Part shown: piece after piece, positions 27,255-63,865 of the stretch
How positions within the stretch are numbered: position 1 is the first letter of the stretch
Layout of the letters: every line of letters starts with the position of its first letter
Origin: Thermoanaerobaculia bacterium
Lineage (GTDB): Bacteria; Acidobacteriota; Thermoanaerobaculia; Multivoradales; Multivoraceae
Length of the DNA stretch: 64,000 nt
Direction of reading: 5' to 3'
Assembly (NCBI GenBank): GCA_963664405.1
Contig: OY761158.1
Location: forward strand, 1,728,001 to 1,792,000
Notes under the pieces: model-generated
Database searches by the model: none
Seen by the model: the letters and a program-made list of their open reading frames with translations, nothing else
Told to the model about the DNA's origin: nothing
Program-made: the position numbers and the translations under genes

Positions 27255-27427
27255 CGGACCGTAACACTCGAACGTTTAGTGGCTGAGTGAGTCATTCGTG
27301 GTCGAGATCAAGGCGCGCTGACGCAGGCATAGCGGGGACTATGTCGAGGAACGTGGGGGCGCCCAGCCAACGCAGAGATCGGCCGCGAGGGCCGCTCAGG
27401 CGCTAAACGTTTGGGTGTTACGGTCCA
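27255..27427 (+). mobile_element. MITE-like structured element, TIR type B (173 bp), CTAG duplication
   Basis: (C)GGACCGTAACAC..GTGTTACGGTCCA; CTAG at 27251 and 27428; core plus GGGGGCGCCCAGCC insert. Confidence 0.9.
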
Positions 27428-28273
27428 CTAGGGCTCGATGGGGGCCTCGGGATCGTGGAAGTCGGTCCACCTCCCGAGGTACTGGCCTCCGTCGGCAACG
27501 ATCGAAGACCCGTTTATGTATCGGGCGGCGGGCGAGCATAGGAAGAGAGCGATCGCCGCCATCTCGTCTGACTCGCCAAAACGGTGGGCGGGGATCTCAC
27601 GCAGAGCGTAGGCCGCGTGGTCGTCCTTGTCGGAGTGAGCGAACTCTTCTTCATTGAGACCCCGCGTCTGGACCATTCCCGGCGCCAGCGCGTTCACCGT
27701 GACGTCGCGATGCGCCCAGTGGTAAGCGAGGCTCTTGCTCAGGCTGACGACTCCTGCGCGGGCCGCTCCCGAGTGCGCCCAATCCGGCCCGCCGCGATCG
27801 AAGGAGTAGATGTGAACGACGTTGACGATCGAGCCGAAGCCCCGCGACAACATGTGGCGTCCGAAGCGCGAGCACATGTTCCAAGTGCCGTTGAGATTGA
27901 GATCGACGACCGCGCGCCAGCCCCCGTCACTGATCTCGGTGGGGCGGGCGGGAAATTGTCCGCCGGCATTGTTGATCAGGAAATCCACCTGGCCGAAGCG
28001 CTCGATGCTCCCCTCCAACAACGCCTCGACCTCGCCGATCTCGCGAATGTTTGTCGGCATCGACAGGCATTCGGCGCCTAGCGACGTCAACTCTTCCTCG
28101 GTCGGATCGAGATTCTCACGGTGCCGACTCGCGATCACGACATTGGCGCCGTAGCGGCCAAAAGCAAGAGCAATTCGTCGCCCTATCCCGCGCCCGCCAC
28201 CGGTCACGACGACGGTGCGCCCCGCGAACAAACCCGGGGCGAATACATTCAGAGATGCGTGAAAGTCAATCAT
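27428..28273 (-). CDS. SDR oxidoreductase (2,4-dienoyl-CoA / trans-2-enoyl-CoA reductase-like)
   Basis: TGGGRGIG, NNAGGQF, HSGAARAG, DGG; start MIDFH inferred. Confidence 0.88.
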   Translation of the reverse strand: MIDFHASLNVFAPGLFAGRTVVVTGGGRGIGRRIALAFGRYGANVVIASRHRENLDPTEEELTSLGAECLSMPTNIREIGEVEALLEGSIERFGQVDFLINNAGGQFPARPTEISDGGWRAVVDLNLNGTWNMCSRFGRHMLSRGFGSIVNVVHIYSFDRGGPDWAHSGAARAGVVSLSKSLAYHWAHRDVTVNALAPGMVQTRGLNEEEFAHSDKDDHAAYALREIPAHRFGESDEMAAIALFLCSPAARYINGSSIVADGGQYLGRWTDFHDPEAPIEP

Positions 28274-28371
28274 ATTGGAGCGCCCACCCTGCGTTCCACC
28301 GCCTACTTCAAAGAGGCGGAATCTTACCATCGACAAAAAGAGGATCAATTCCTCTCTCTGGGGCCAACCGT

Positions 28372-28914
28372 TTAGTACGCGCGCACCGAAAACAACCGAC
28401 TCCCTGAAGTGGGGCTGCCACTCCAAGTGAGGCGCAGCCGCTGCACCTGTTGGTCCTCCGCCTGCCATGCCGGAGCACTGCTCAGATCGAAGCGAATCAG
28501 CTTCGGACTCGCCGCTGTCGAGACGACAGAGCGGTTGGGGGTGAAAGCATCGTCCTGCGCCCACCACAGTCTGAAAACCAGCGCATCGAGGCCTTCTCCT
28601 TCGAGCATCAACCCGTCGATCTCCGGCGCCAAGAGATAGACCGACCAGTGGAATCGCCCCTCCGCGCCCTCGAGCGCCAGGCCTCCCTCATCACAGGTCA
28701 CGGTCGTCGAGTCCTGCCGAAACTTCCACAGGTCCTCACCCATGTTGCAGCCGGCGATCCAATAGTGAACGCCACGGGGGTCCCAAGGCGCTGAGCGAGA
28801 GGGGCCGGCTGACGAATCGACGGCTGACTCCCTGCCTCCCTCTCCGCCAGAAGGAGGGACGCAAGCGAGACAGACGAAGCCGATCGACAGCCCGGCAATG
28901 CCGAGAACAGACAT
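28372..28914 (-). CDS. Hypothetical lipoprotein
   Basis: MSVLGIAGLSIGFVCLAC hydrophobic leader with lipobox-like LAC. Confidence 0.55.
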   Translation of the reverse strand: MSVLGIAGLSIGFVCLACVPPSGGEGGRESAVDSSAGPSRSAPWDPRGVHYWIAGCNMGEDLWKFRQDSTTVTCDEGGLALEGAEGRFHWSVYLLAPEIDGLMLEGEGLDALVFRLWWAQDDAFTPNRSVVSTAASPKLIRFDLSSAPAWQAEDQQVQRLRLTWSGSPTSGSRLFSVRAY

Positions 28915-28934
28915 CGCGGTCGGTCGAAGATCTG

Positions 28935-29313
28935 TCGAGGCGATACTAGTGGACCGTAACACTTGAACGTTTAGTGGCTGAGCGAGTCATCGTGGTCGAG
29001 ATCAAGGCGCGCCGACGCAGGCATAGCGGGGACTATGTCGAGGAGGCGCAACGTAGAGATCGGCCGCGAGGGCCGCTCAGGCGCTAAACGTTTGGGTGTT
29101 ACGGTCCACTAGGGTGACTCAGCGATGCGGGCACTTGAGCCTCGCGCTCGAAGCGCGCCATCCGTTGCTCGTCCGAGGCGAAAGCCTCTCGGGAAGCACC
29201 TTGAGGGCGACGGCGCGGTTGAGCCGGGTGTCGATTGCTCGATATACCTCGCCCATCCCGCCTTCGCCGACTCTGGCGCTAATCTCGAAATGGCCGATCA
29301 ACTTGCCGATCAC
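28935..29313 (-). pseudogene. N-terminal remnant of a Hanks-type Ser/Thr kinase, interrupted by the MITE and frameshifted
   Basis: [42 protein letters not shown] / [33 protein letters not shown]. Confidence 0.85.
28950..29108 (+). mobile_element. MITE-like structured element, TIR type B (159 bp), inserted in a kinase remnant
   Basis: TGGACCGTAACAC TIR; CTAG at 28946 and 29109. Confidence 0.9.
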
Positions 29314-29375
29314 GTTTCTCGCCCCGATTCTTGGCCAGGGGGAAGTCATAGTGTATGTCAGACTCACGGCCCAGA

Positions 29376-62517: not shown

Positions 62518-62707
62518 GGCATCGGACTCCTATTTAGTGGCCTATGTCGTGGCCTCTTGCGCTACCATGGAGGCGGCACAAAACATTTCCTTGTGGCCTG
62601 AGCTAAGACTCGAGCACTTCGTTCTGCACGGGGGCAGGCCGCCGGGCTCGCAGGCATACCGTCCGACACCAAGTGTCGGGAGCCTCGGAGACTCGAGATT
62701 CACAGTG

Positions 62708-63088
62708 TCAAAGGCTGCGCTTGCGGCCTCGAATGCGACGGCGACTGCCCTTCGGCTTCCCCTGAGGCTTCTCGAAGGGGGGACGGGATCCGCCGCCGAA
62801 GCCTCCCCCCGATGAAGACATGGGGGCGCGCTGCGGCCGGTCGTCGGCCATATTCACTCGTAGGCTGCGGCCGCCAAGATCCGCCCCATCAAACTGAGAA
62901 GCGGCCTCGGCAGCCTCCTGCTCCGATGAGAACTCGACAAATGCGAAGCCACGAGGACGGCCGGTATTGCGATCGTTCGGGATCACAACATCGGTGATCT
63001 CACCAGCCTTGGAGAAGTGCTGCTCCAACTCGACACGGGTGGTATCGAAACTGAGGTTGCCGACAAAAACTTTCCTGGAAATAACCAA
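62708..63088 (-). CDS. RRM RNA-binding protein
   Basis: RNP2 VFVGNL, RNP1 RGFAFVEF, Gly/Arg-rich tail. Confidence 0.92.
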   Translation of the reverse strand: MVISRKVFVGNLSFDTTRVELEQHFSKAGEITDVVIPNDRNTGRPRGFAFVEFSSEQEAAEAASQFDGADLGGRSLRVNMADDRPQRAPMSSSGGGFGGGSRPPFEKPQGKPKGSRRRIRGRKRSL

Positions 63089-63143
63089 ACCTCCTTGACA
63101 TGAACGGTAAGTCTACACGGATTCGAGTCCTTCCGCACCGAGC

Positions 63144-63692
63144 CTACTTGCCCCCCAGCCAAACCACCTTGGCGCCGGCAACCGCGGCCTCCGCTCGAGC
63201 GTCGATCTGCTCATCAGTCAAGGTGCTGAGAGGGTGCTCGATTAGCACCGGAGAGAGCGAGCTCATACCCAACGCGTCTCGCTGCATCCTGGCCTCGAGC
63301 TCGAACTCGGCGGTGATCACGACAGCAGTCGCGACGCCGCGCTGTTCGAGGCCCACTGAGTCGTGCATACAGCACGACGTGCACGAACCTCAATCGCCTA
63401 TCGCGGTGATCACCAGATCGCAGTCTCGAGCGATCTCGTCCAAGAGCTGAGGGTCTGCAGCTCGCGAGAAGCTCTCCTTGGCATAGAAGCGGATCTCACC
63501 CAATCCATCCTCGGCCTCCAGTCGCGCGGCGATCCTGCGAAGGAGCTTGCCGGCGTTCCACTTGGTGTTATCAAGGACGCCCAAGCTCCGCCCCTGCAGG
63601 CGTTGCGGCCGGGGCGCTAGAGGCTGTGGCGTAGCGTCAGTGTTTCCCCGGGGGTCGAAGACTAGATCTTGGTCGGGCGGTGACTGGGTCAT
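63144..63692 (-). CDS. UGSC-family selenoprotein (182 aa; Sec at TGA 63392-63390)
   Basis: Two ORFs in the same frame joined by one TGA: ...VITAIGD-U-GSCTSCCMHD...; hairpin 3' of the UGA. Confidence 0.88.
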
Positions 63693-63705
63693 GAATTCCT
63701 CCTAG

Positions 63706-63865
63706 TGGACCGTAACACTCGAACGTTTAGTGGCTGAGTGAGTCATTCGTGGTCGAGATCAAGGCGCGCTGACGCAGGCATATCGGGGACTATGTCGAGG
63801 AAGCGTAACGCAGAGATCGGCCGCGAGGGCCGCTCAGGCGCTAAACGTTTGGGTGTTACGGTCCA
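63706..63865 (+). mobile_element. MITE-like structured element, TIR type B (160 bp), CTAG duplication
   Basis: TGGACCGTAACAC TIR; CTAG at 63702 and 63866. Confidence 0.9.

Follow-up and report, generated by a model that had tools for sequence, protein, structure and literature searches.

The window (the whole stretch of 64,000 nt that was analysed) carries seven copies of a near-perfect palindrome of ~166 nt with CTAG at its borders. These elements are CTAG-duplicating MITEs, an identification that was absent from an earlier reading of the same DNA by eye (the sequence-only reading). Our tentative interpretation, drawn from sequence comparison, is that they may well represent an IS630-type MITE family whose G-rich strand has been selected to fold, probably as single-stranded DNA.

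Copies and Architecture of the Family

All of the strings quoted in the sequence-only reading were located in the sequence, and two type A copies fall outside the range 27255..63865 that it covered. The elements of the window and their parts are as follows.

21802..21830, + strand: mini element, 29 nt, solely two type-C2 ends, CTAG borders; its right CTAG is common to the type A element 21827-21993
21827..21993, + strand: type A element, 167 nt, CTAG at both ends, core ~21870-21949; stem mismatches on the + strand G-U 3, A-C 0
21884..21935, + strand: conserved asymmetric core of the type A element 21827-21993, ~52 nt
22872..23050, + strand: type A element, variant, 179 nt, extra ~13-nt GC-rich core segment; right end degenerate (CTCG)
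27251..27431, + strand: type B element, 181 nt, core-insert variant as in 22872..23050
28946..29112, + strand: type B element, 167 nt
53497..53663, - strand: type C3 element, 167 nt, the foldable G-rich strand being the minus strand; stem mismatches on the G-rich strand G-U 5, A-C 0
59316..59512, + strand: type D element, 197 nt, longer core, without clear wobble bias
63702..63869, + strand: type B element, 168 nt, one change away from the type consensus

The type D element at 59316..59512 occupies the CTAG in the middle of a different small palindromic repeat. About 12 minis of the two-ends-only kind occur across the genome.

Using the core profile as a query, nhmmer identified 255 copies in the 6.78-Mb genome, far above chance. 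The ends were definable for 235 of the 255 copies, with lengths mostly of 165-169 nt, and CTAG is present at both ends in 176 of these 235. Pairing of the arms begins at the very first base (in 19 representatives, helix 1 is paired at 93%), and one conserved asymmetric core is joined to at least eight unrelated arm types. The copies have no coding capacity and are spread over the whole chromosome in every intergenic context.

Evidence for Transposition and a Probable Link to IS630

Three elements, each lying within another repeat, were aligned (five element-paralogue pairs), and the uninterrupted paralogous copies of these repeats have one CTAG or CTAA at precisely the insertion point; further candidate empty sites were listed, the alignment covering these three elements. 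The copies at 21827, 22872 and 27251 are skipped in contigs of other strains (contigs of run X12 skip three window copies and those of run X8 skip one), these strain-level empty sites being less clean. A contig of run X12 with ~98% identity lacks the element 22872..23050, and 27251..27431 is missing in the same run, where the site reads TTAG and the flanks have diverged. Copies come and go among strains that are ~98% identical, and synteny at this locus is not kept in 30 relatives.

Judged from end and target sequences, the most likely affiliation of these MITEs is with the IS630/Tc1-mariner kind, with insertion at TA within CTAG. According to a title cited in PMC2170065, IS630 targets TA, by preference within CTAG; duplication of TA and of CTAG are indistinguishable in these elements because CTAG is a palindrome. 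One resident IS630-family IS (113.6 bits vs. a cut-off of 100) is flanked by CTAG; arm type X2 matches its first 10 bases (10/10) and its subterminal AACGT motif, and type B matches it only in a GAACGT motif. In genome G028, a CTAG-flanked IS630-family IS adjoins rods, and its end resembles type A arms at 8/12 bases at equal offset (estimated by eye). Other CTAG-flanked DDE elements are abundant in the genome of the window, and type F elements in other genomes have 5-nt direct flanks of CTCAG.

A full-length partner for the main arm types is absent from this genome: among genome-wide arm matches outside the elements, none placed A, C or D arms on both sides of a transposase, and a genome-wide search for CTAG-bounded inverted repeats 0.3-4 kb apart gave no autonomous partner for A, C or D. 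The partner searches returned IS1182-family and other IS, nested and paired elements, and an IS91 composite. An A-arm pair with a 2.5-kb IS91-family insert is present at two loci, with different flanks and with CTAG outside each. This arm pair moved while its loop held the 2.5-kb insert, and movement therefore does not require a tight hairpin. The IS91-family unit itself was rejected as a parent of the family, its 46%-identical relative (5 copies) having its own ends and lacking the arms.

Strand Asymmetry of the Stem Mismatches

Bacterial MITEs are usually regarded as double-stranded substrates with a passive part, and any importance of their hairpins is assigned to RNA. The sequence-only reading had proposed that mismatches in the stems favour G-U over A-C on one strand. 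Palindromes were aligned in a strand-neutral manner, with G-T and A-C scored alike, for 21 cluster consensuses or singletons derived from 233 own-genome and 57 other-MAG elements, and isolated mismatches with Watson-Crick pairs on both sides were counted. The proposed bias was borne out, with G-T 82 vs. A-C 14 over the 21 clusters (P-value = 7e-13), and with G-T 40 vs. A-C 5 in the type-specific outer arms only. On the G-rich strand of the same clusters, G-A was found 44 times vs. 8 for C-T and G-G 17 times vs. 3 for C-C, while A-A and T-T were balanced (3 vs. 2); the clusters partly share ancestry, which makes the mismatch counts somewhat dependent on one another. The ~5.7:1 ratio of G over C is the same in each of the three reciprocal classes (82:14, 44:8, 17:3), and the asymmetry repeats across arm types of unrelated sequence and in several genomes. 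The uniformity of this G excess may also reflect strand-specific loss of C at some step rather than selection for stability.

The G-rich strand is predicted to be the more stable one in 20 of the 21 clusters with RNA parameters, and likewise in 20 of the 21 with DNA parameters, the mean strand difference being -19.5 kcal/mol and -9.3 kcal/mol, respectively. For the type B element 63702-63869, the + and - strands reach -110.2 kcal/mol (z -13.7) and -72.9 kcal/mol (z -8.1) as RNA, and -51.7 vs. -38.9 kcal/mol as DNA. Type D is an exception (G-T 2 vs. A-C 3; -110.2 vs. -108.1 kcal/mol), and the bias is missing in this type and in one singleton cluster among the 21. In 21/21 clusters the foldable strand has a positive GC skew, unpaired positions included. 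Because double-stranded transposase-binding repeats need no strand-specific wobble, this asymmetry suggests that one strand folds.

Covariation of the Conserved Core

The ~52-nt core consists of three short helices and a 4-nt G-rich loop, and it is present at 83-90% identity in 9 of the 21 families of the class. Covariation was measured for 50 pairs in 19 representatives, with 500 shuffles. Both sides have changed in 39 of the 50 pairs, and 92.7% of cells are paired, vs. 35-47% when the partners are slid by 1-3 columns; the observed covariation values were reached by none of the 500 shuffles. Pair 69:106 (GC 11, UA 6, CG 1, AU 1) illustrates full Watson-Crick replacement in a core helix. The covariation that the sequence-only reading had described in the apical stem was recovered (AU 10 and GC 8 at pair 81:94, GC 11 and UA 7 at pair 84:91), and the bulged bases are conserved as it had stated, the unpaired AAGG, GCAGG, GAGGAG and AACG positions being invariant or nearly so. 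Covariation of the arms alone is non-discriminating, because two identical terminal repeats also appear compensatory. The discriminating evidence is the wobble bias and the core covariation only.

Mutation Bias versus Selection

We regard it as improbable that the family has no single-stranded function and that its G excess is a by-product, either of strand-specific mutation or repair during multiplication or of the composition needed by a protein that binds the double-stranded core. Such an origin would agree with the equal ~5.7:1 ratio in three classes and the balance of A-A and T-T, which form a simple C-loss pattern, and with a positive GC skew that extends to unpaired positions in every cluster. 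However, singleton changes in resident copies are unbiased: on the G-rich strand they include G>A 31, C>T 23, A>G 25 and T>C 24, and summed over the singleton changes C was lost 48 times vs. 54 times for G. Since resident-copy changes are strand-symmetric, mutation bias in resident copies is not the explanation of the asymmetry. Moreover, the replication skew has the opposite direction, composition alone cannot yield Watson-Crick covariation of the core helices, and mutation on an exposed strand would still mean a single-stranded stage. The new changes in single copies show a weak bias (G-T 41 vs. A-C 25, P-value = 0.06).

The sequence-only reading had named mutation bias as an explanation that would count against its own; the resident-copy spectrum does not match the asymmetry, which also runs against the replication skew. 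Replication mutation skew was rejected as a cause because the G-rich strand is mostly the C-rich lagging strand. Selection probably acts mainly on multiplying lineages, rather than on every inserted copy. The central claim of the sequence-only reading, that one strand folds, is supported, and its interpretation as a whole is supported in part.

RNA or DNA as the Folded Molecule

The Turner RNA model gives G-A and C-U mismatches equal costs (0.01 kcal/mol apart), while the Mathews DNA model favours G-A by 1.26 kcal/mol. The observed G-A excess of 44:8 therefore fits DNA, an argument that depends on nearest-neighbour models. This comparison of G-A with C-U mismatches is a simple separator of RNA-level from DNA-level selection that could be applied to other palindromic repeats. 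From the sequences analysed, the folded form of the G-rich strand is probably single-stranded DNA.

It is less likely, though conceivable, that RNA is what folds, in which case a co-transcribed G-rich hairpin would serve as a target of RNase III or RNase E, as an mRNA stabiliser or insulator, or as a small RNA precursor. Such RNA roles have been proposed for Correia, ERIC and RUP elements. The strand asymmetry is indeed largest under RNA parameters, G-U is the commonest mismatch, and unpaired conserved purines beside covarying helices are typical of structured RNAs. In addition, 72 of the 204 intergenic copies sit between convergent genes, a position that would put them in 3' untranslated regions, and the sources consulted describe stable stem-loops made by MITE transcripts (PMC10969869) and, for CREE, inverted repeats plus a conserved core and binding by RNase III (PMC2649163).

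However, the copies are oriented at random with respect to flanking tandem genes (45:48), so that half of them would be transcribed as the poor-folding strand. Because pairing reaches the extreme ends of the element, an internal promoter would be unable to make the whole hairpin, and a promoter and terminator scan of 21700-29300 detected no such site within the four copies. Rfam 15 gave no match at gathering score in the window; the best permissive match was MIR918, a plant miRNA hairpin, far below threshold (26.3 bits vs. a cut-off of 268), and a snoRNA was also returned. The excess of G-A over C-U lies outside the prediction of the RNA model, a replication-strand bias is unexpected for an RNA role, and copies are not kept between close strains. 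The sequence-only reading had offered an RNA signal, a guide-like RNA or a single-stranded DNA intermediate; gene orientation and the Rfam search lend the RNA options no support, and the replication bias and the G-A excess favour the DNA one. If RNA were the folded molecule, a transposon would have carried a new structured RNA motif, the core, through the class.

Orientation to Replication and a Candidate Mechanism

The foldable strand favours the leading-strand template (141:94, P-value = 0.0026), a moderate bias (60:40) that depends on an origin set by GC skew at 2.75 Mb, whereas dnaA is found at 3.42 Mb. This bias is present in both replichores (P-value = 0.0027, Fisher test), and it is already found in copies with 0-3 differences from the consensus (34:18).

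Under the reading that the G-rich strand folds as single-stranded DNA, multiplying lineages would be selected to keep one strand foldable and its complement poorly foldable, and the folded strand would be exposed at replication forks or in a transposition step. The conserved unpaired bases of the core could then represent a strand-selecting or protein-binding module, like the extrahelical bases of attC. The foldable strand would be preferred on the template of the leading strand, the position in which it is exposed as single-stranded DNA least often, and the orientation bias might arise either because insertion senses the fork or because copies in the opposite orientation are quickly lost. ISY100, a member of the IS630 family, transposes by double-strand cut-and-paste according to PMC2170065; such a route has no need for a folded strand, which counts against this reading. 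The elements have the CTAG target and partial end identity in common with IS630 and ISY100, but they carry no transposase.

A more specific proposal, which we consider possible but doubtful, is that TIR/TSD IS630-like MITEs spread via a strand-selective single-stranded DNA hairpin and that the 52-nt core is a new structure-specific recognition module. By analogy, the core may then be comparable to attC extrahelical bases or to a single-strand origin. If true, the family would be a hybrid of a cut-and-paste transposon and a recombination substrate folded from single-stranded DNA, tied to the replication fork.

A REPIN-like origin appears very improbable. Here the elements would be single-stranded DNA mobilised by a RAYT-like Y1 (HUH) transposase that cuts CTAG on both sides, and the apparent duplication would consist of a cleavage site and a target site. 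A RAYT gene normally has its own REPs on its flanks. The genome has 13 Y1_Tnp matches, of which the one checked is RAYT-like (54.5 bits vs. a cut-off of 80), and the mechanism would naturally give strand and replication bias. REPINs are described in PMC3116915 as hairpin doublets with compensatory changes that are thought to move as single-stranded DNA, and PMC5027513 describes excision of the top strand at the fork for IS200/IS605. Nevertheless, an element lies within 4 kb of only 2 of the 13 Y1 genes, about the level of chance, and adjacency to RAYT genes was rejected. The arms are similar to IS630-family IS ends, and the CTCAG flanks of type F together with the CTAG-flanked DDE elements fit a staggered-cut duplication. 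Compared with REPINs and the ends of IS200/IS605 (PATEs), the elements are likewise dispersed hairpin repeats with compensatory changes, but they differ in having a duplicated target and IS630-like arms and in not lying around RAYT genes. The active strand of IS608-type elements is on the template for the lagging strand, and the replication orientation of the elements is opposite to that.

Comparison with Known Systems

RUP is linked to IS630, and ERIC duplicates TA. RUP of pneumococcus, Correia/CREE of Neisseria and ERIC/RU-1 of enterobacteria are, like the elements described here, non-coding, present in high copy and ~100-170 nt long, with terminal inverted repeats around a conserved core, a TA-type target duplication and strong predicted stem-loops. 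In all of them the copies are intergenic or at gene ends, and some are intragenic and in frame. Unlike those families, the core here spans at least eight unrelated arm types and 9 of the 21 families of the class, the mismatch spectrum is one-stranded, and the orientation is biased to replication and not to genes. A word search of the text available from the 2024 MITE review PMC10969869 gave no mention of strand-biased wobble or of single-stranded DNA, and in the literature searched, which was of limited coverage, bacterial MITEs were nowhere described as having strand-biased wobble.

The attC sites of integrons are sequence-variable imperfect palindromes in which the structure is kept and one strand is folded and used (PMC2727003). 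According to PMC5371416, their recombinogenic strand is enriched in purines and G, and in 25 of 30 chromosomal integrons it is on the leading-strand template. A purine- and G-rich folding strand and placement on the leading-strand template are thus common to attC and the elements; unpaired bases set the strand choice in attC, and the elements have conserved unpaired core bases. Unlike attC, the elements are dispersed (255 copies), have duplicated CTAG borders and are not arranged in cassette arrays beside an integrase. This resemblance may indicate a mode of action, by analogy, rather than membership.

The family bears a quantitative signature of one-strand folding together with a replication-linked orientation, both of which parallel integron attC. 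If the folded form is single-stranded DNA, either a DDE-type MITE has an unrecognised single-strand step, or the host filters palindromes at the fork, and the core would represent a new motif of structured DNA.

Open Reading Frames and Gene Ends

A small ORF running from an ATG in the core to the terminal TAG in types A and B was rejected by eye, because ACG or CTG takes the place of this ATG in types C3, C4, D, E and F. Among 237 gene ends that face an element, 83 have a TAG stop within the terminal CTAG. In the window, the terminal CTAGs of 27251..27431 give TAG stops to the convergent ORFs 25458-27254 (+) and 27428-28567 (-).

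Copy Number, Distribution and Mobility of the CTAG-Bounded Elements

Repeat finding and reading of the sequence revealed seven copies of a near-perfect palindrome of ~166 nt in the window, with CTAG at the start and the end.

Copies of the palindrome in the window
21827-21993, type A
22872-23050, type A
27251-27431, type B
28946-29112, type B
53497-53663, minus strand, type C3
59316-59512, type D
63702-63869, type B

A profile of the central part detected 255 copies in the 6.78-Mb genome (62.6% G+C), 129 on the plus strand and 126 on the minus strand. Ends could be set for 235 copies, with CTAG at both ends in 176, at one end in 43 and at neither in 16. 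CTAG is scarce genome-wide (7,502 occurrences vs. 23,229 expected), and element ends make up 391 of these occurrences. The central part is common to all arm types (copy number: A 127, B 28, C1 22, C2 13, C3 10, C4 8, D 10, other 17), and its most conserved 52 nt are not palindromic. Three short helices make up this core together with a G-rich tetraloop, and its unpaired AAGG, GCAGG, GAGGAG and AACG are conserved; the window copies at 22872 and 27251 have a core variant with an extra GC-rich segment of ~13 nt. A 77-nt core query was run on 301 genomes sampled from the class and matched 31 of them, distributed patchily over 9 of 21 families; the matches typically cover 52 nt at 83-90% identity. 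Other complete genomes rich in these elements are G028, G005, G136 and G291. Arm types E and F were added from other genomes, type F being flanked by CTCAG.

The elements are mobile, and CTAG is duplicated on insertion. Three elements lie inside other repeats, and after removal of the element and one CTAG the flanks align gap-free over the junction to uninterrupted repeat copies, which hold a single CTAG (CTAA in one case) at the insertion site. Contigs of closely related strains also lack elements, at 21827, 22872 and 27251 in run X12 and at 21827 in run X8, with flanking genes ~98% identical; the empty sites in these strains deviate from a clean single CTAG: at one the flanks have diverged around TTAG, and at two some six more bases are missing. 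According to a crude ORF-based gene call, 83 of the 237 gene ends pointing at an element have a TAG stop within the terminal CTAG, and both convergent ORFs flanking the copy at 27251-27431 (25458-27254, plus strand; 27428-28567, minus strand) take their TAG stops from it. The type A insertion is exactly 162 nt (54 codons) and free of stops in three of six frames; genome-wide, 31 copies lie inside ORF calls.

Strand Bias and Probable Selection for Folding of One Strand

One strand of the element is probably selected to fold. To compare stem mismatches, consensuses were taken of 21 clusters from 233 elements of the own genome and 57 from other Thermoanaerobaculia metagenome-assembled genomes. 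The left arm was aligned to the right arm with equal scores for G-T and A-C, so neither strand was favoured, and only isolated mismatches with Watson-Crick pairs on both sides were counted. G-T mismatches outnumber A-C by 82 to 14 (p = 7e-13) when read on the core-defined strand, although the counts are not fully independent because some clusters are related (e.g., three A-like, two B-like). The sequence-only reading had noticed that most arm mismatches are G-U compatible on only one strand, an observation that is right and robust. Within the first 40 positions, where sequences are unrelated between types, the counts are 40 vs. 5. Mismatches of transversion type follow as G-A 44 vs. C-T 8, G-G 17 vs. 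C-C 3 and A-A 3 vs. T-T 2. In type D the bias is absent. Folding is better for the G-rich strand in 20 of 21 clusters under RNA parameters, and again in 20 of 21 under DNA parameters, as exemplified by the window type B copy 63702-63869. GC skew of the foldable strand is positive in all 21 clusters (mean 0.146), and AT skew is positive too.

Among 19 representatives, 39 of 50 predicted pairs changed on both sides, and 92.7% of cells pair, compared with 35-47% for slid partners; no shuffle reached the observed values. Arm covariation by itself is also expected from two identical terminal repeats, and the core is the informative part. The covariation claimed earlier holds there: pairs 69:106, 74:101, 81:94 and 84:91 change between Watson-Crick types around unpaired bases that are invariant, or nearly so, in the 19 representatives.

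The strand bias might be a by-product of a strand-specific mutational step, which we consider improbable. Changes found in just one copy show strand symmetry (G>A 31, C>T 23, A>G 25, T>C 24), so mutation bias in resident copies, the refuting explanation named beforehand, does not account for the asymmetry. At consensus Watson-Crick pairs, singleton changes gave G-T 41 times vs. A-C 25 times (p = 0.06), and distinct events 65 vs. 42 (p = 0.03). The strong bias therefore resides in the type consensus, i.e., in the lineages that multiplied. Decay of inserted copies is almost neutral, and folding is not upheld copy by copy.

Nature of the Folded Molecule

The folded molecule would be DNA in single-stranded form, at a replication fork or during a transposition step. 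We favour ssDNA over RNA, and the reading as a whole, an IS630-type MITE with one strand selected to fold as ssDNA at either of these stages, is offered tentatively, at slightly less than an even chance. Folding as RNA is rather unlikely in our judgement. In tandem gene contexts, the G-rich strand runs with the genes in 45 cases and against them in 48. With single-mismatch energies averaged over all neighbour contexts, the RNA model gives a G-A vs. C-U difference of 0.01 kcal/mol, i.e., none is predicted. The DNA model gives 1.26 for G-A vs. C-T, 1.64 for G-T vs. A-C, 2.42 kcal/mol for G-G vs. C-C and about 0 for A-A vs. T-T, and the observed pattern (44:8, 82:14, 17:3 and 3:2) follows these modelled values.

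To assign replication orientation, the origin was placed at the minimum of cumulative GC skew (2.75 Mb) and the terminus at 6.77 Mb. Of 235 copies, 141 have the G-rich strand on the lagging strand, which serves as leading-strand template (p = 0.0026), with the caveat on origin placement that dnaA, at 3.42 Mb, is off the skew minimum. Both replichores show the bias (Fisher p = 0.0027), as do most types and already the copies with 0-3 differences from the consensus (34:18).

One arrangement speaks against a tight hairpin being strictly required, namely an A-arm pair whose apical loop holds a 2.5-kb IS91-family unit, present at two loci that differ in their flanks.

Composite element in the window's own genome (G000)
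G000:C1:6272417-6275122 (locus L001), 2,706 bp, CTAG-bounded
G000:C1:6758844-6761549 (locus L002), 2,706 bp, CTAG-bounded
near 2170873, fragment

The unit encodes a tyrosine recombinase and an IS91-family Y2 transposase and is placed exactly in the type A loop (GGGG|AAT). Either it is cargo moved by the arms, or the loop is a favoured target of the IS91-family IS.

A CTAG-bounded mini hairpin of 29 nt, in which the two type-C2 ends meet at a short GGC direct repeat, was detected at window 21802-21830 and some 11 further sites in the genome; in the window and at 6758822 of the genome, a type A element follows it immediately. It looks like a hairpin-promoted deletion that recurs, or like a minimal mobile unit.

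Candidate Transposases and Other Repeats

The elements form a new MITE family, probably of IS630 type. A preference of IS630 for TA within CTAG is on record in the title of a paper cited by PMC2170065. Two copies of the IS630 family are present in the own genome (113.6 and 110.6 bits vs. a cut-off of 100), one of them with clear CTAG-flanked ends; a resident IS630-family transposase is located at about 5164179-5165424 of G000. The first 10 bases and the subterminal AACGT motif of the resident CTAG-flanked IS recur in arm type X2 (one copy), and its GAACGT motif recurs in type B arms. Another genome (G028) contains four copies of a different IS630-family IS, all CTAG-flanked, of which two directly adjoin elements of the ~166-nt family; judged by eye, its end resembles type A arms. 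No partner of full length bearing A, C or D arms was found in the own genome, where other CTAG- or CTNAG-flanked transposons are abundant.

CTAG- or CTNAG-flanked transposons of the own genome
Window 57666-59227, IS1182-family IS, 1,562 bp, CTAG-flanked, transposase 57732-59051 (plus strand), at least 8 genome copies
About 28 loci in G000 (e.g., 71938-72711), 2-kb IS, 498-aa frame weakly similar to IS630 transposases

The 2-kb IS has the ends GGGTCGGCGCGGAAATAAG; its flanks are CTAAG or CTTAG, suggestive of a 3-bp duplication of TNA type. A MITE of ~85 nt, with ends (GAGCCTGCGAGGCAG) similar to those of the IS1182-family IS, is nested in a type A element at locus L003.

Mobilisation of the RAYT type seems very unlikely: the own genome does contain 13 Y1_Tnp matches, in open frames of about 300-440 aa, and the single frame that was checked (303 aa; locus L099, 946-1857, minus strand) is RAYT-like, below the cut-off, but linkage was not found, with an element within 4 kb of just 2 of the 13.

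CTAG-bounded palindrome arrays with a unit of ~68 nt and a GGAAATGA motif lie at window 20304-20429 and 57565-57675. Such arrays are common genome-wide, act as insertion sites for the ~166-nt elements and share a GGAAATG motif with type C3 arms. At window 3470-6230, several families of direct repeats of 116-240 nt (D1, D3, D4, D6, D9) and short GCC/ACC-rich repeats were observed, probably within a repetitive coding region of the minus strand that is rich in Gly.
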